Positions 286 to 32,700 of a stretch of 64,000 nucleotides of DNA are shown in pieces. Numbering within the stretch: the first letter of the stretch is position 1; each line of letters begins with the position of its first letter. Origin of the DNA: an uncultured Verrucomicrobiae bacterium (lineage in GTDB: Bacteria > Verrucomicrobiota > Verrucomicrobiia > Chthoniobacterales > Chthoniobacteraceae); the NCBI GenBank assembly GCA_963769025.1, contig CAVYKI010000012.1, forward strand, positions 192,001 through 256,000, in the 5' to 3' direction. The notes under the pieces were generated by a model. That model searched no databases, was not told the DNA's origin, and worked only from the letters and a program-made list of their open reading frames with translations. The translations under genes and the position numbers were made by a program.

Positions 286-1500
286 ATGGCTTTATCGACA
301 TCCCAATCGGAATCCCCCACCGGAAGCGACCGGATCGGGGCGGGCCGATGCGAACTTTCAGTGGTGATGCCGTGCCTCAACGAAGTTGAGACAGTGGGTA
401 TTTGCGTTGCAAAGGCGCGGCGCTGGATTGAGTCCAATGGGTTGAACGCCGAAGTAATCGTGGCCGATAACGGAAGCACGGACGGTTCCCAGAAAATCGC
501 AGAAGAAAATGGAGCGATCGTCGTCCCCGTACCGGAGAAAGGATACGGCGGCGCGCTGATGGGCGGCATCGCCGCAAGCCGAGGCGATTACATCATCATG
601 GGGGACGCGGATGACAGCTACGATTTCTCCGTTCTGGGGCCATTCGTCGAGCGACTGCGTCAGGGCTACGGGCTCGTCCAAGGGTGCCGCTTGCCGGGGG
701 CCGGCGGGGAAATCAAGCCGGGCGCGATGCCAGTGCTGCACCGGATCGTTGGCAACCCGTTCTTCTCACTGCTCGCGCGAATTTGGTTCAAAGCGCCAAT
801 CCACGACATTTACTGCGGGCTGCGAGGGTTTAGCAGGCAGTGTTACGAGCGGCTTGGATTAAAATGTGTCGGAATGGCGTTCGCGACCGAAATGGTGATT
901 AAAGCCAGCCTGTTTCGGGAGCGAATCTCCGAGGTGCCGATCACGCTCCACCCCGACGGACGTGTGACCCGGCGCCCTCACCTCAAGACATTCCGCGACG
1001 GCTGGCGGACCCTGCGGCTTTTTCTGATGTACGCACCGCGTTGGCTGTTCCTCGTGCCCGGCGGGGTTCTGATTGGCCTCGGCTTGCTCGCCTATGCCCT
1101 CGCATTGCCAGGAATTGCCATTTTCGGCGCGCAACTCGATGCGCACACGCTGCTCTTTGGGAGCCTCTCACTGCTCTGCGGCGCGAACGCAATCTGGTTT
1201 GCCGCTGCGACCAAGGTGTTTGCGATCAGCGAAGGAATGCTGCCGGAAGACCCGCGGCTCACGCGCTTTCTTAGCGTCGTGAATGTGGAGCGCGGTCTGG
1301 TGGCTAGTGCAATTGGCTTGATTGCCGGTCTGGCATTATTGGGGTTCGCCGTTCTGGAATGGCGATCGACGGGCTTCGGCAGGCTCGATTACTCACATAC
1401 GATGCGCCTGGTGATTCCCGGCGCAACCCTCGCCGCGCTCAGCTTCCAGCTCATCCTCTCCATCTTTTTCCTCGGAATCCTCGACATGCACAAGAAATGA
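286..1500 (+). CDS. Family 2 glycosyltransferase (DPM1-like) with C-terminal transmembrane helices
   Basis: SVVMPCLNE, VADNGSTDGS, GYGGAL, MGDADDSYD motifs; hydrophobic C-terminus. Confidence 0.9.
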   Translation: MALSTSQSESPTGSDRIGAGRCELSVVMPCLNEVETVGICVAKARRWIESNGLNAEVIVADNGSTDGSQKIAEENGAIVVPVPEKGYGGALMGGIAASRGDYIIMGDADDSYDFSVLGPFVERLRQGYGLVQGCRLPGAGGEIKPGAMPVLHRIVGNPFFSLLARIWFKAPIHDIYCGLRGFSRQCYERLGLKCVGMAFATEMVIKASLFRERISEVPITLHPDGRVTRRPHLKTFRDGWRTLRLFLMYAPRWLFLVPGGVLIGLGLLAYALALPGIAIFGAQLDAHTLLFGSLSLLCGANAIWFAAATKVFAISEGMLPEDPRLTRFLSVVNVERGLVASAIGLIAGLALLGFAVLEWRSTGFGRLDYSHTMRLVIPGATLAALSFQLILSIFFLGILDMHKK

Positions 1501-2126
1501 GCTTCTTGGACACGCTACACGGCGGCTATGTCCATAGACGCCGCATAACGCGCCTCGCGTTCGCTATCGGCGGCTTGCTTCCGGAAAATTCCAGCCTGCT
1601 GGATGTGGGAGCCGGTGATGGTCGGTTGTCGGCAATGCTCAAAGCCGGCAAATCATCGCTCGATGTCACAGGCATCGACGTTTTGGTGCGTCCCGAGACA
1701 CAGATCCCGGTGAGGCATTTCGACGGCACGCATATTCCCCAAGCCGATCAGAGCTGCGACTATGTCCTGTTTGTCGATGTGCTGCACCATACGGACGACC
1801 CATCGATCTTATTGCGCGAAGCAGCGCGCGTCGCCCGGCGTGGGGTCATCATCAAGGACCATCTGCGCGAGGGAATTCTCGCGAATCGCACCCTCCGATT
1901 CATGGACCGCGTGGGCAACTGCCGGCATAACGTCGCGCTGCCTCACAACTACTGGTCCTTAAAGCAATGGCAGGCGGCGTTCGATGAAATCGGACTTCGG
2001 GCGGCGCAATGGATATCGCAGCTGCACCTTTACCCCATTCCGGCTGACTGGATCTTCGGCAGATCCCTGCATTTCCTCGCGTTATTGGAACGAACGAACG
2101 CGTCTGCTGACGCCCATTCCGTATGA
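1497..2126 (+). CDS. Class I SAM-dependent methyltransferase
   Basis: LLDVGAGDG and DVLHH motifs; ATG overlaps the upstream TGA (ATGA). Confidence 0.85.
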   Translation: MSFLDTLHGGYVHRRRITRLAFAIGGLLPENSSLLDVGAGDGRLSAMLKAGKSSLDVTGIDVLVRPETQIPVRHFDGTHIPQADQSCDYVLFVDVLHHTDDPSILLREAARVARRGVIIKDHLREGILANRTLRFMDRVGNCRHNVALPHNYWSLKQWQAAFDEIGLRAAQWISQLHLYPIPADWIFGRSLHFLALLERTNASADAHSV

Positions 2127-2833
2127 ACGGGGATCCCGTTCGCCCCGACACCGGGGCACCGGTTCACTCGGCGGAATCGCAGGAATGTTGCTCGGGCGAA
2201 TGGGAGCGGGCTTATGCGCGCTTCGAAACCCCTGAGGAGGAAATCGCAAAATTCGTTCGCCGGTTGCGCGACATCGGGGCCGAAAAATGGCCGCGCGACT
2301 GGCAAATCCTTGAGCTGTGTTCGGGACGCGGCAACGGCCTCCGCGCACTCGAAGCATTGGGCTTTGGATCCATCGAAGGATTGGACCTTTCCGCTCCGTT
2401 GATTAGCCAATATCGCGGTCCTGCAAAATGTTATGTCGCGGATTGCCGCAAGTTGCCGTTCGAAGATGCGAGCCGCGACGTGATTCTGGTGCAGGGCGGA
2501 CTTCATCATCTGCCTGAATTGCCGGGCGATCTCGAACGAACGGTCCACGAGGTTCAACGCGTTCTGAAACCTGGCGGGATTTTCGTTCTCGTGGAGCCGT
2601 GGCTGACGCCGTTCTTGCGAATCGTCCACATGGTGTGCCGGCAGCGGATTGCCAGAAGGTTGTCGGGGAAAATTGACGCCCTGGCGACGATGATCGAGAT
2701 CGAGTGGACGACCTACGACCAGTGGCTAAGCCAGCCCGATGCCATCCTTCGCATTCTGCGCCAGTCCTTCAAGGCGAACATGTGCAAGCCAGCCTGGGGC
2801 AAACTTACGGTCGTTGGTCAGAAGCGTGCGTAG
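2123..2833 (+). CDS. Class I SAM-dependent methyltransferase
   Basis: ILELCSGRG, GLDLS, LPFEDAS, RVLKPGG motifs; ATGA overlap. Confidence 0.85.
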   Translation: MNGDPVRPDTGAPVHSAESQECCSGEWERAYARFETPEEEIAKFVRRLRDIGAEKWPRDWQILELCSGRGNGLRALEALGFGSIEGLDLSAPLISQYRGPAKCYVADCRKLPFEDASRDVILVQGGLHHLPELPGDLERTVHEVQRVLKPGGIFVLVEPWLTPFLRIVHMVCRQRIARRLSGKIDALATMIEIEWTTYDQWLSQPDAILRILRQSFKANMCKPAWGKLTVVGQKRA

Positions 2834-3052
2834 CCGAGCGTCTTTCAGCGGTAGCTTGCGTTGGCGGACAGGGCGTGAGCACGCGGGACGGGGGACGGAG
2901 GGCGGTGCCAACGGCGCATGAGTCCGCCCTGCGGGTTGCAGACTGGAAGCGCCCCCTCAAGTCCGCCAACGGCGCGCACGTTTCCCGAGTCCACGCCATG
3001 GCCTCCGCCGTCAACCGCTGTGTCCACGTCGGCCTCCGGGAAAAAGCGGCAG

Positions 3053-3124
3053 TGGGTCGGGCGAGACTCGAACTCGCAACCAACGCCTTAAAAGGGCGCT
3101 GCTCTACCATTGAGCTACCGACCC
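3053..3124 (-). tRNA. tRNA-Lys (anticodon UUU), CCA not encoded
   Basis: Reverse complement GGGTCGGTAGCTCAATGGTAGAGCAGCGCCCTTTTAAGGCGTTGGTTGCGAGTTCGAGTCTCGCCCGACCCA folds as a cloverleaf; anticodon loop CTTTTAA; T-loop GTTCGAG. Confidence 0.95.
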
Positions 3125-3244
3125 GTGGCCGAAACGAGCGCTGCAACTAAGGCACGCCGCCACGTGACGCAAGCGGGAAACGAAGTAAGCCGCCCACTCC
3201 TCCACGATGACACTGGCGGCAAAAGCCGCTAGCGTCCCGTCCCA

Positions 3245-4393
3245 ATGCCACTCCCCAGTCTTTCAAAATCCGCACGCCGACGCATCGCCGTGCTTGGTGC
3301 GCTCCTTGCGGCTGCCGTCGCAGGCGTGATCTGGCAGTGGCCGGAGATTGAGGCGCGTTGGTATCCGGCGGCTGCATCCGTTGCCACGCCGAAGCTCGCG
3401 TGCGCGGAGGTGCAGGCGCGCTCGCTTTATTTCAACGGCCTCGCGCTCCCGTGGCTCGAGAAATTCCGGCCCGAGCTCCTGACCGCCGAGGACCGCGACG
3501 CGACGAGTTCCCGGCGGCGGGCATTCGTCCAGGCGCCGCAAAACCCGAAGCTCTTCCGCCAGCTCGATCGCCAGCATCATTTCGACACGCTCCTTCTCGT
3601 GGGCGAGCCGAGCAACTACCGGCGCCTGCTCGATCATCTCCTCGAGCCCGAGCCGGGCAAGCGCGACTTCCAGCTCGTCTATCTCGACCACTGGGCGTTC
3701 ATTTTCAAACGCGGCGCGGCGCGTGAGTGGGTGCCTGCCGATGCGGAAGCGGTCCGGGCGCGGCTCGGGAATATTCGCACGCGGGACCAAGCCACCTTCC
3801 TCGCGATGGCCGCGGGAAAAATGCTCGCCGTCCGGCAGGTCGAGACGGCGAAGCGCTGGCTCGATGAGGCCGCGGCGCTCGACAGCCGATCGATCGACGT
3901 GCTCGCCGGGCTGGCCGGTTATCAAATCACGATCGGCCGCTGGGTGGAAGCCGAGACCTATGCGGACAAGGCCCTCAAAAAGGATCCCAACTCCGTCCCT
4001 GCGCTTGCTGCGAAGATCGTCGCGATGCGCGCGACGCGTCACCACATCGACGCGTTCAAGTTTTCCGAAAAGCTCAACAGGCTCCTGCCCGAGGACCCGG
4101 TGCGGCTCTGGCAGCACGCTCAACTGGCCCACGAGGCAAAGCAAAATGCAGTCGAGATCAAGGCGCTGACACGGCTCATCGCGCTCGCCCGCGAAGAAGG
4201 GCGGCCCTCGGCCGAGTATGAGTTTTTCCTCGGCGAAGCCCATGCGCACGAAGCGCTCGACAATGCGGAGCACGCGCCCCTCGCGCTCCAGCATCTCCGG
4301 CTCGCCGTGGCGGACCCGGCGCTTCCGGCGGACAAGCGGAAATTTGCCGAGGAACGAATCGCGGTCATCCTCAAGCGCACGGGGCTGAAGTGA
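3245..4393 (+). CDS. Membrane-anchored TPR-repeat protein
   Basis: N-terminal TM segment; TPR-like helices (WVEAETYADKALKKDPNS). Confidence 0.7.
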   Translation: MPLPSLSKSARRRIAVLGALLAAAVAGVIWQWPEIEARWYPAAASVATPKLACAEVQARSLYFNGLALPWLEKFRPELLTAEDRDATSSRRRAFVQAPQNPKLFRQLDRQHHFDTLLLVGEPSNYRRLLDHLLEPEPGKRDFQLVYLDHWAFIFKRGAAREWVPADAEAVRARLGNIRTRDQATFLAMAAGKMLAVRQVETAKRWLDEAAALDSRSIDVLAGLAGYQITIGRWVEAETYADKALKKDPNSVPALAAKIVAMRATRHHIDAFKFSEKLNRLLPEDPVRLWQHAQLAHEAKQNAVEIKALTRLIALAREEGRPSAEYEFFLGEAHAHEALDNAEHAPLALQHLRLAVADPALPADKRKFAEERIAVILKRTGLK

Positions 4394-28370: not shown

Positions 28371-28450
28371 TCCGCAGATTACGCAGATTTTCGCAGAGCC
28401 TCGGAAACGGGATGCCTCAAAAGTCTGCGCCCATCTGCGGAATCTGCGGA
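28371..28450. repeat. Intergenic inverted element built from ~9-bp CGCAGATT units
   Basis: TCCGCAGATT-ACGCAGATT-TTCGCAGA facing TCTGCGCCC-ATCTGCGGA-ATCTGCGGA between convergent tadA and queA. Confidence 0.8.
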
Positions 28451-28457
28451 ATCTCCG

Positions 28458-29510
28458 CTACACGATCAGCATGCAGTCGCCGTAGCTGTAGAAGCGGTAG
28501 CGCTCGCGGATGGCCTCTTCGTAGGCACGCAGGATGAACTCCCGTCCGGCGAGTGCGGACACGAGCATGAGCAGCGTGCTTTGCGGGAGGTGAAAGTTCG
28601 TCAGCAGCATGTCCACGGCGCGCGGTTGGAAGGGCGGGCGGATGAAGATGTCGGTGCTTCCCGCGGCGGCGCGCACGGGACGACCGATGCTTTCGAGCAC
28701 GCGCGCGCTCGTGGTGCCGACGGCGACGATGCGTTTCGCGGCGTTGCAGGCCGCGGCGGTTTCCTCGCTCACTGCGAAGCGCTCCGAGTGCATCCGGTGG
28801 TCCGCGAGATCGTCCACGAGCACGGAGCGGAATGTGCCCACGCCGACGTGCAGCGTGACGAACGCGTGCGGCACACGCGCGAGGATTTCCGGGGTAAAGT
28901 GCAGCCCCGCGGTGGGCGCGGCCACGGCTCCGGCCTCGCGCGCGAAGACCGTCTGGTAGCGCACGTTGTCCGACGCCTCGGGCTTGCGCTCGAAGTACGG
29001 CGGGAGCGGGATTTCGCCGTGCGTGTCCAGGTCCACCGCGTCGAGGAATTCGATCATGCGTTCGCCTTCCGGCTCGATGCCGCGCACGACGCCGGCCACG
29101 CCGCCGACATGCACGAGCGCGCCGAGCCGCATCTTGCGCCCGGGCTTCACGAGGCATTTCCAGAGGTAGGGCGTCCTCGCCGAGGACGCCGACGCATCGG
29201 CCGCTGTGGCCCCGGGATTCTCGCCGGAGGAATGGGGCGCTTTCGGCGAAAGCGCCCTGCCCTCGAGGAACAGCAGCTCGATCTTGCCGTCGTCCGAGAA
29301 TGCCCGTGCCGGGATCACGCGCGTGTCGTTCAGCACGACGAGATCGCCGCTTTCCAGATACGACGGGAAGTCGGCGAACTTCCGGTGCTCGATGCGCTGT
29401 TCGGCGCGGTGCAGCACCATCATGCGGGAACCATCGCGTCGCTCGGCAGGGTAGCGCGCGATGAGTTCTTCCGGCAGGGTGTAATCGTAGTCGGCGGTTC
29501 GCAGGCTCAC
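28458..29510 (-). CDS. queA: S-adenosylmethionine:tRNA ribosyltransferase-isomerase, with an in-frame palindromic insertion
   Basis: LPEELIARYP, LNDTRVIPAR, PLPPY, AAPTAGLHFT, TNFHLPQSTLLMLVSA, YRFYSYGDCM. Confidence 0.96.
   Translation of the reverse strand: MSLRTADYDYTLPEELIARYPAERRDGSRMMVLHRAEQRIEHRKFADFPSYLESGDLVVLNDTRVIPARAFSDDGKIELLFLEGRALSPKAPHSSGENPGATAADASASSARTPYLWKCLVKPGRKMRLGALVHVGGVAGVVRGIEPEGERMIEFLDAVDLDTHGEIPLPPYFERKPEASDNVRYQTVFAREAGAVAAPTAGLHFTPEILARVPHAFVTLHVGVGTFRSVLVDDLADHRMHSERFAVSEETAAACNAAKRIVAVGTTSARVLESIGRPVRAAAGSTDIFIRPPFQPRAVDMLLTNFHLPQSTLLMLVSALAGREFILRAYEEAIRERYRFYSYGDCMLIV
29166..29260. repeat. GTAG-type REP doublet (REPIN-like) inside queA
   Basis: GTAGGGCGTCCTCGCCGAGGACGCC (29166-29190) plus an inverted copy GGCGCTTTCGGCGAAAGCGCCCTGC (29236-29260). 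Confidence 0.85.
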
Positions 29511-29568: not shown

Positions 29569-29693
29569 TGTGGAGCGCTGGCGTCCCCGCCGGCCACGCT
29601 CATCTGCGAAGCACCATTCTTCTTCGCACGCCGGACAGAGAAGGTGGCGCTTCGCGTTGTGTTGCATGGCCGGCGGGACGCCAGCGCTCCACA
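29569..29693. repeat. Intergenic GGAG-type REP doublet
   Basis: TGTGGAGCGCTGGCGTCCCCGCCGGCCA ... TGGCCGGCGGGACGCCAGCGCTCCACA inverted arms. Confidence 0.85.
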
Positions 29694-29736: not shown

Positions 29737-32700
29737 ATGCGAATGCTCCCCCTCCTGCTCATCACCGCCGCGGTTTGCAGCGCCGCCGTCACGCCGCCGG
29801 AGCAGATCAAGGTGCCGCCGGGGTTCAAGGTCGAACTCCTGCGCGAAGCCGGGCCGCGCGAGGGCTCGTGGATCTGCATGGCGCAGGACGGCCAAGGGCG
29901 GCTCTACATTTCGCCGCAGGGCGCGATCCCGGAGAGCGGCTTCGGCAAGGACAACAAGTGGGGCGGCATGTGGCGCACGACGATCGTCATGACCGAAAAT
30001 CCCACCGGCAATATTCAGCCGCACATCATCAAGTGGGAAAGGGTGAAGGTCCCCGTCGGCGACGCCATGGGCATGCTCTGGGCGTTTGACTCCCTCTACG
30101 TCTCCGGCATGGGGCCGCAGGGGCGCGGCATCTACCGCTGCACTTCCAGCAAGCGCGACGGCAACCTCGACACCGCCACGCTTTTCAAGGCAATCCCCGG
30201 CGGCGCGGGCGAGCACGGCGCCCACGCCATCGTCCTCGGGCCGGACAAAAAGCTCTACATCGTCAACGGCAACAGCACCGGCATCCTCGACGGCCTCGCG
30301 CCCGACTCCCCGTATCGCCATTGGGGCGAGGACGACCTCCTCCCGCGGCTGAAGGATCCCGTCGCCACCTTCTTCGACAAGCTCAAGGCCCCCTACGGCT
30401 GCGTCTATCGCACCGACGCCGACGGCACGAAGTGGGAGCTCTTCGCCGGCGGCTTCCGCAATCCCTACGACATCGCCTTCAACCCCGACGGCGAGCTCTT
30501 CACCTACGACAGCGACATGGAGTGGGACCGCGGCCTCCCGTGGTATCGCCCCACGCGCATCCTCCACGTCGTCCCCGGCGGCGAATACGGCTTCCGCGAA
30601 GGCAGCGCGAAATGGCCCGCGTATTTCCCCGACTCGCTCCCCGCCGTGGCCGACATCGGCGTCGGCTGCCCCACCGGCATGAAGTTCGGCACCGAGGCGA
30701 AGGGCTGGCCGGAAAAATACCGCCGCGCGCTCTTCATCCACGACTGGACATATGGCCGCATCCTCGCCGTCACCCTCCACGAGAAAGGCGCGAGCTACAC
30801 CGCGAGGAACGACCTCGCCAGCCATACCTACCCGCGGGACGCCGAGGCGAACGGCGACGTGGAAGTCTTCCTCAGCGGAAAAGGCATGCCGGTGACGGAC
30901 CTGGAATTCCTGCACGACGGCTCGATGGTCTTCACCGTCGGCGGCCGCGGCACCGCGGCGGCGCTGTATCGGGTGAGCTACGTTTCCGGCGCCCCCTCCG
31001 GGGCGCATCGCGATTCCACCGGTAATCCGGTGGTTTCACCACCGGCTAATATCCTTCGTCCCTCCGGGACGAACGCAAGCGCACCGTCAACGAGCAATCC
31101 ATCCGCAAACTATCCGCCCGCCAACAATGCGCCGGAGGCGCAGCGGAAGTTAGCCGGTGGTGCAGCGAGCGAAGCGAGCGCAACCACCGGATCGCTGACA
31201 GCAAAAGCAAGCGCCCCGGATGGGGCGCGGGAAGGCGTCAGCGAAAAGCCAAAGCATTCAGGCGGTTTCGATGAAGCCGTCGATCGGGAAGACGTGCGCA
31301 AGATGATGCTTTGGTCCGCGTCCGTTGCCACTCGCGACCACTATGCCCTCCAAGACTCGTGGCCATCAAACCGCGACATCGGGACACCTCGGGGGCTTGC
31401 CGGTAGAATGGTGATGGAATCCGGCCTTTACCCCGAGTTCAGAAACAAAGCCCTCAATGAAGCGGATGATGCTATCGCACTTCCTTCATTGCTCGCGCTC
31501 GCCCGCGTGGGTGCCTCTACAGATCAAGCGGCCATTCTCGCAAGACTCACCAAATTCCCCCTCGCCTCGCTCTCCGACGACTTGAAGCTCCTCAAACTCC
31601 GCGTCCTCGAACTGAGCTTCGCGCGGCAGGGGCGGCCTTCGGAGGAACGGGTGAAGGCCCTGATGGAGGAACTGCTGGCGCATTACCCGGCAACGAACGT
31701 GGCGAAGGGCGCGGCGGCGAGTGGAGCGCTGCCGTCCCCGGCGGCCACGACACCAAACGGCGAAGCCGCACTTCCCAATGGCGCACGGAATGCAAACGCG
31801 CATGAAAGTGGCGCTGCGCGCGGAGCGACCTGGCCGGCGGGGACGCCAGCGCTCCACTCGCCGTCGCTCCCCGTGGATGACCCCGCGTGGCGGCTGAACC
31901 GCGAGCTTTGCGCCCTCCTCGTCTGGCTCTCGAATCCCGAACTCGGCGAACCGAACTCCGCACTTCCGGCGAAGGCGCAGGGCGCGGCGCGTCCGCAATC
32001 GGAAGCGCGCGCTGCGGCGAACAACGCCAGCGCGAAACCGAAGGACAACGATGCCCTTCCCTCGGAAGCGCCGCCGGTGCCGGGAGGCGGTAAAGTGATC
32101 AGTAATCAGTCAAAAGTAATCAGTGAAGCGCAGCCGACTGATCACTCATCCCCGCGCCGAACCCCGGCGCGGACATTTTCCCCGGCCGCAAGCCCGCGCC
32201 TTTCCAGACGGAACTGGGCCGGCAGGTGATCGAGAAGACGCTCGCGCTCATGGACGCCGCGCCTTCGCAGGAGGAGCAAATCTGGTATGCGCTCTGCCTG
32301 CGCTGGGCGCACGGGTGGACGCCCGAACAGCGCGTGCGGTATTTCCGCTGGTTCCACGAAAAGGCCGCGCGCTACACGGGCGGGAATTCGTTCGCGAAAT
32401 TCGTGGAGGCCATCCGCGCCGATGCCGCGTCGCGCGTGCCGGAGGCGGACCGCGCCGCGCTCGCGGACTGGCTGCGCCCCGTCGCCGCGCCCACTCCCGC
32501 CGCCGCGCTGAAGCCACGCGCCTTTGTAAAGGCGTGGACTTTGCCCGAACTCGAAGCCGCGCTCGACAGGCTGAAGGACCGCCAGCCCGACCTCGCGCGC
32601 GGCAAGGAACTCTACACGCAGGCGCAATGCGCGCAGTGCCATCTCTTCCGCGACGCGGGCGGCAACGTGGGGCCGGACCTCACCGCCGTCGCGCAGCGCT

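Follow-up and report, generated by a model that had tools for sequence, protein, structure and literature searches.

A GTAG-tagged REP doublet in frame within a loop of QueA in an uncultured Verrucomicrobiae bacterium

Introduction

How does a pair of repetitive extragenic palindromic (REP) sequences come to lie in frame inside a housekeeping gene, and what does it do to the product? This question is raised by queA in a stretch of 64,000 nucleotides (the window, G000:C12:192001-256000, where G000 denotes the source genome) from an uncultured Verrucomicrobiae bacterium. The initial annotation had read two inverted, tagged palindromes within an intact queA frame, in a loop that is normally short, and had likened them to REPINs and to Rickettsia palindromic elements. 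The locus is considered here together with its orthologues, the repeat family to which the palindromes belong and the transposases that may have placed them.

A doublet in the queA frame

The features discussed below are the following (window coordinates).

28458..29510, minus strand: queA coding sequence, 350 aa, GTG start, based on NF001140 and PF02547 matches; one copy in the genome
29163..29261, minus strand: 33-codon loop, QueA residues 84-116, in place of an 8-codon ancestral loop, based on orthologue loops, the gap in solved structures and pLDDT
29166..29190, plus strand: REP unit 1, GTAG tag and perfect 7-bp stem, a rare stem variant, based on sequence
29191..29235, no strand: 45-nt spacer between the REP units, its ends similar to other family copies, based on sequence
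29236..29260, minus strand: REP unit 2, commonest stem of the family, tag decayed to GCAG, based on sequence

The queA frame is uninterrupted (29510-28458, minus strand) and its 350-aa translation is as first quoted. The product scores 393 bits on NCBIfam NF001140 (cut-off 324), which places it in the QueA family, PF02547 spans residues 6-349, and the best Foldseek matches of its model are 1yy3, 1vky and 1wdi (E 1e-19 or lower), i.e., the QueA fold. A single queA match was found in G000, tgt and queG both being present with scores above cut-off, and near homologues of the protein are labelled Chthoniobacteraceae in their source records.

Both palindromes fit the pattern noted by the initial annotation. 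Unit 1 (29166-29190, plus strand) and unit 2 (29260-29236, minus strand) are 25-nt hairpins, inverted with tags outward and spanning 95 bp in all, and their variable triplets are perfectly complementary. The units have the characters of GTAG-tagged REPs (a palindrome of 20-40 bp, a stem of 5-13 bp and an unpaired GTAG tag at one end), and the doublet has the arrangement of a REPIN, with two inverted REPs at most 200 bp apart. The change of the unit 2 tag to GCAG is synonymous in the queA frame. An additional G precedes the tag of unit 1 at 29165, as in 66 of the 67 units of the family, and another stands beside unit 2 at 29261. About 30 extra codons had been proposed; the insertion itself stands, but its size is corrected to 33 codons replacing 8, a net gain of 25, with no target-site duplication.

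Other repeats lie close to queA. A perfect 19-bp inverted repeat of a different family is found immediately upstream (29569-29693), and the adjacent heme-protein gene (29740-32229) contains an in-frame unit related to it and several low-complexity insertions, and directly adjoins the following ORF at 32226, as though it had been split. Between the convergent ends of tadA and queA (28373-28455) lies another inverted repeat family with ATCCGCAGAT-type units, of which about 12 dispersed segments occur genome-wide.

Loop states among relatives

The shortness first ascribed to the QueA loop is borne out. Alignment to three solved QueA structures puts the insert into a gap no longer than five residues, and the orthologue alignment that had been proposed defines an empty site: 17 of the 25 genus relatives with a readable loop lack this doublet and have a loop of 6 or 8 residues. 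In G336 and G012, the closest relatives, which are 92% and 90% identical to G000 outside the loop, it has 8 residues. The insert is thus an intragenic REP in the usual sense, in frame in a conserved gene with orthologues that lack it.

Among the best 120 QueA homologues, 104 loops were parsed (16 were not), comprising 56 of 6 or 8 residues, 18 of 9-14 and 30 of 18-66, and several unrelated kinds are represented among the long loops. The same doublet as in G000 occurs in QueA of G014, G004 and protein P0002. The loop of G010, which was tested, is an inverted doublet of a second repeat family with 19 matches in that genome; this family has 36 matches in G336, yet the QueA loop of G336 is empty. 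Judged by their peptides, other long loops look repeat-derived. On sequence evidence, then, the same QueA loop has been filled repeatedly across related species, and at least one further repeat family is proven among the fills. Separately, P0042 has a 13-residue loop that looks like one decayed unit of the queA REP family.

Wider searches were also conducted. Phylum and class searches ranked by score gave 20 loci, picked mostly for long span, and 37 others; by eye, the loop is short in nearly all of these, one has a 21-residue loop, and surplus length mostly lies elsewhere in the protein. A metagenome pattern scan gave 0 matches to the filled allele, and a second metagenome scan using P0002, in which 41 of 80 loops were parsed, did not return P0002 DNA. 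The G000 allele was found in no sequencing run searched, these runs containing at most 0.10 of the query words. Contigs skipping the insert were found in DNA runs and in one RNA library; since they also occur in DNA runs and differ at 19-25 other letters, they are empty alleles of relatives and not spliced RNA.

Effect on the enzyme

Structure mapping, likewise proposed at the outset, placed the insert in the gap of the three solved structures and in a modelled coil between two strands. In the AlphaFold2 model (mean pLDDT 69), residues 86-113 are coil with pLDDT below 50, between strands 78-85 and 115-122. The strands around the insert would belong to the small beta-barrel domain, distant from the conserved catalytic motifs. 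The insert is predicted to form a disordered peptide that is likely neutral.

The queA body, judged by its substitutions, is under purifying selection: dN/dS is 0.09 and 0.13 between G000 and, respectively, G336 and G012, and 0.10 between G336 and G012, although such pairwise values cannot place this selection after the insertion. If queA were decaying, the insert would be tolerated only because the gene is dispensable, and the six lineage-specific residue changes in G000, against one in G336, could be taken as a sign of it. However, the insert-free G012 has five such changes, the dN/dS of the G000 gene is like that of empty-loop relatives, the gene is the sole copy next to intact tgt and queG, and a filled, intact gene is retained in both G014 and G004. 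Decay is accordingly an explanation to which we give hardly any credit.

Could the insert instead serve a function, its mRNA hairpin or peptide regulating QueA output, or be removed from the RNA? As DNA, its two hairpins fold separately (z -3.0), while as RNA it forms a single long hairpin (-66.2 kcal/mol, z -3.4), and none of the 8 differences between the orthologous inserts of G014 and G004 falls in the stems. Such folding is nevertheless expected of any REP doublet, and unrelated sequences of 6 to 66 residues occupy the same loop in relatives. The peptide moreover appears free of constraint between G014 and G004, the insert having a dN/dS of about 0.9 (5.5 non-synonymous and 2.5 synonymous changes, hence a ratio based on 8 changes) against 0.14 for the body, and the insert-skipping contigs are accounted for by relatives' empty alleles. 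A functional insert is for these reasons very improbable.

Distribution of the repeat and precedents

The REP of queA belongs to a repeat family. Its exact pattern has 46 copies in G000, spread over 7 contigs; the reversed control has 0, and base composition predicts 0.003. A looser scan detected 67 units in 47 elements, 18 of which are tags-out doublets, and the variable triplets are complementary in 40 of 54 core matches. Multi-copy, dispersed, mostly extragenic and with compensatory stem variants, the family behaves as GTAG REPs do. Using our own hexamer coding model, with a coding signal required on both sides, 8 of the 47 elements were found in frame inside genes and 39 were not. Besides QueA, the hosts are UvrA, a UvrD/PcrA-type helicase, a DnaK-type Hsp70, a protein kinase, a WD40 protein, a cytochrome c domain protein and one poorly characterised protein. 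The initial reading of the queA element is supported by its REPIN-like head-head arrangement, by the short loops of orthologues that lack it and by these seven other in-frame occurrences. In 17 of the 47 elements, the REP tag is the TAG stop of a gene. At the Hsp70 site, 46 residues in G000 correspond to 59 of other sequence in G336 and to a 21-residue segment in four relatives; the UvrD site is without a clean empty allele, 50-75 residues being present in all six genomes compared. Of the 30 genus genomes, 5 contain the pattern (G000, 46; G014, 18; G004, 8; G001, 2; G015, 2), all from one subclade, and a 25-mer identical to the queA REP was found at at least 114 loci in genomes of several phyla.

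The parallel first drawn with Rickettsia palindromic elements holds for in-frame behaviour, but the closest precedent is rather the intragenic GTAG REPs of Opitutus terrae. In its sections on these repeats, the study that published 24 GTAG families (PMC3733652) reports that GTAG REPs inside genes are most numerous in O. terrae, where in-frame dimers make up about 70 table entries. More than half of the intragenic GTAG REPs are dimers or groups encoding 20-30 residues, their tags often give stop codons, and uvrA (two sites) and UvrD/REP helicases are among the listed hosts (PMC3733652). The likeness to our family extends to the GTAG tag, 7-bp stem, head-head dimers, 20-100 bp spacers, TAG stops and a Verrucomicrobia host (PMC3733652). 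The tRNA-ribosyltransferase-isomerase Oter_2037, by name the same enzyme as the queA product, carries a GTAG-19 dimer at residues 101-124 of 398; a CGTC-4 unit is listed at 170-178 for R. conorii RC0283, under the same enzyme name (PMC3733652). As intragenic GTAG REPs are already published for the same phylum with the same gene listed, the queA insertion is not a new phenomenon. There are nonetheless two differences from what these sections and their supplement contain: the queA stem is not among the listed peptides (0 matches in a supplement term search for ALSP), and repeated junction reuse in non-sister lineages is not described, same-site insertion being reported only for recB of two Xanthomonas species (PMC3733652). 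As a side observation, uvrA of G000 has a second, decayed doublet (L073/L277, G000:C9:978000-983300), at a site also filled in G014, which parallels the two uvrA sites of O. terrae (PMC3733652). The uvrA frame of G000 is in pieces where relatives have open frames of about 1900-2075 aa, a contrast suggestive of indel errors in the assembly.

Other known systems resemble the queA doublet in part. Rickettsia palindromic elements, as summarised in a review (PMC10969869), are also palindromic repeats in frame in unrelated housekeeping genes. RPE-1, however, is about 150 bp long with a conserved peptide and is nearly half intragenic (PMC10969869), unlike the queA family with its 25-bp units, variable spacers and peptides and 8 of 47 elements in frame within genes; the queA doublet itself measures 95 bp, and spacer length and sequence vary among copies. 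REPINs overwritten by others in Pseudomonas chlororaphis (REPORTH, 10.1101/2024.10.14.618302) likewise place different repeat types at one orthologous site in different genomes, but those described are extragenic and within one species, whereas here protein loops are included and the sites are compared across species. Among Creative Commons PMC papers and bioRxiv, we found neither a report of junction reuse in protein loops nor a paper dedicated to queA with an in-frame REP insertion.

Candidate transposases

REPINs and REPtrons with a group 3 type RAYT (TnpA-REP; PMC8266576, PMC3116915) share with the queA doublet two inverted perfect-stem REPs at most 200 bp apart, the GTAG tag and, at locus L171 of another genome, a RAYT flanked by the same REP. 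The L171 RAYT scores 87.4 bits on NF047646 (cut-off 80), is flanked by doublets of the queA REP type and terminates on the tag TAG of a 25-mer identical to the queA REP. The queA doublet departs from this model in being intragenic and predicted to be translated, and no cognate RAYT was found in G000. None of the 22 NF047646 matches in G000, G014, G004, G001 and G015 was flanked by the queA REP, in the case of G000 from an assembly that is 83% complete, and a RAYT motif is near 1 of the at least 114 identical 25-mer loci. The four NF047646 matches of G000 are flanked by other repeats or by none, and its only Pfam Y1_Tnp match has no queA-family REP nearby. A RAYT embedded in thrS of G000 lies about 950 bp from a queA-family doublet, but is bounded by a different repeat.

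The thrS-like ORF (L066:935-3466, G000:C10) is 843 aa long and has an in-frame RAYT-like domain (NF047646 78.4 bits, just below cut-off) between long inverted repeats starting with a GTAG tag, the queA-family doublet being just upstream. Two identical-looking RAYT copies of 84.3 bits (L067, G000:C10:511500-515500, and G000:C13:35626-36030) are flanked by arrays of the most abundant repeat family of G000.

Taken together, we consider it probable that a RAYT placed the GTAG REP doublet in a tolerant QueA loop, where it has been kept, near-neutral, as long as frame and fold survive. A RAYT, now missing or unassembled, would have put the doublet into the short beta-hairpin loop in place of the 8 ancestral codons and in frame, and QueA is predicted to bear a disordered, near-neutral addition of 25 residues. 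Tolerance of the loop for extra residues is the likely reason for the persistence of the insert. This loop would be one of a limited number of tolerant sites, colonised repeatedly by different repeat families. Selection would retain only junctions that keep the frame and the flanking strand or helix, which likely accounts for part of the junction reuse described below.

History of the insertion

With the loop excluded, the queA tree groups G000 with G336 and G012 (100/99), and a clade of the carriers G000, G014 and G004 is rejected (p-AU 0.002). P0002 has protein-level junctions identical to both of G000 and yet belongs to another clade, the bootstrap of which is not fully settled. The distant G008 has an empty loop homologous to those of G336, G012 and G015, and the empty state is therefore ancestral; non-carrier loops retain the P...PHT state of the outgroup. 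From these alignments, the best explanation is that the insert replaced 8 ancestral codons after the G000 lineage split from its closest sampled relatives.

Two other loci show a comparable distribution. In the uvrA linker, a doublet occurs at the same junction in G000, G014 and G004 (carrier clade p-AU 0.035), while [RK]xxL is found in 23 of 23 parsed non-carriers (3 of 29 were not parsed). At the gene end G000:C9:497921, G000 and G014 have a doublet at the same junction and G011 a remnant; it is absent from 22 of 25, among them the sister of the carrier G014, G004, and the carrier clade has a p-AU of 0.0004. More generally, 6 of 15 examined G014 REP sites are common to G000.

A single insertion in the ancestor of G000, G014 and G004, lost or overwritten elsewhere, would agree with the restriction of the family to one subclade (5 of 30 genomes) and with the overwriting of REPINs suggested at conserved extragenic sites in 10.1101/2024.10.14.618302. 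G000 may also have branched off before the point implied by the queA tree, as 4 of 6 other genes have quartet counts that place G336 with G015 and not with G000; this leaves the species tree of the subclade unsettled. At one locus, a second-arm variant occurring once in G000 is common to G014, which favours a common origin there. Yet because the insert replaced ancestral codons, its deletion cannot regenerate the empty loops that G336, G012 and G015 share with G008. The same argument applies at uvrA and at the gene end, so that this explanation is for the most part refuted, unless recombination has brought empty alleles back in, and we judge it improbable.

Alternatively, and not exclusively of RAYT placement in a tolerant loop, the filled allele may spread by itself, the doublet either inserting anew or being copied at one junction of orthologous genes, through a RAYT-guided site preference or short-tract recombination; G000, G014/G004 and P0002 would then share the insert and not gene ancestry. 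The non-clade carriers at all three loci, the outgroup state of the non-carriers (including the empty G004 gene end), the G000 junctions of P0002 and the sites common to G000 and G014 all argue for it. Against it, the doublet spacers differ between carrier genomes at shared sites, and the 5' junction of queA lies three codons further on in G014 and G004 than in G000. Informative flank sites of G000 track G336 and G012 to within 3-5 nt of the junction, so that any transferred tract must be nearly flank-free; no conversion tract from G014/G004 to G000 was seen in the flanks, with a portion of the G336 uvrA flank possibly misaligned there. Selection can also force junctions to converge, as illustrated by the REP peptide GRAL, which retains the leucine of UvrA [RK]xxL. 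We hold spread of the filled allele alone to be possible, if on the whole unlikely.

At queA, uvrA and one gene end, non-sister lineages carry the REP at identical or almost identical junctions, which points to repeated targeting or to transfer of the insert alone, as far as these alignments go. The sharing of junctions by non-sisters, and of the second-arm variant by G000 and G014, exceeds what random insertion plus selection easily explains; for 500-4000 assumed sites the Poisson P of the shared sites ranges from 0.004 to 4e-8, values that are indicative only given the assumed numbers.

At L272, L390 and L388 the empty site consists of two convergent genes sharing a CTAG, and in the filled alleles both doublet tags give stop codons, one at an unchanged position; this pattern hints at TAG microhomology in target choice. 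Differing GTAG-led repeats are found 3' of the stop of the same gene in different relatives (L273, G000:C3:1062520; L288, L289, L292). At an intergenic site holding a REP doublet in G014 and G015, G000 has a gene with a Fic-type motif instead (L276:522-1906).

Conclusions

The queA case is a further instance of the published REP dimers inside Verrucomicrobiota housekeeping enzymes, its translation here being predicted. What makes it valuable is the comparison it permits, with clean empty and filled alleles at a number of loci, junctions that recur, and a natural series of loops from 6 to 66 residues long in one enzyme. The mode of REP spread is still described as unresolved in PMC8266576, and the queA, uvrA and gene-end alleles, together with the L171 RAYT, make REP target choice directly testable. 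More speculatively, and with odds that we put rather low, REP doublets of this Chthoniobacteraceae-like genus may act like homing elements for tolerant sites, which non-sister species acquire repeatedly at an identical junction, practically without co-transfer of flanks, so that loops (QueA, UvrA, DnaK-type Hsp70) and stop codons would be fixed slots for whichever repeat family is active. If this were true, the pairs of filled and empty alleles would be the first precise natural substrates and products of the unsolved REP dissemination reaction.
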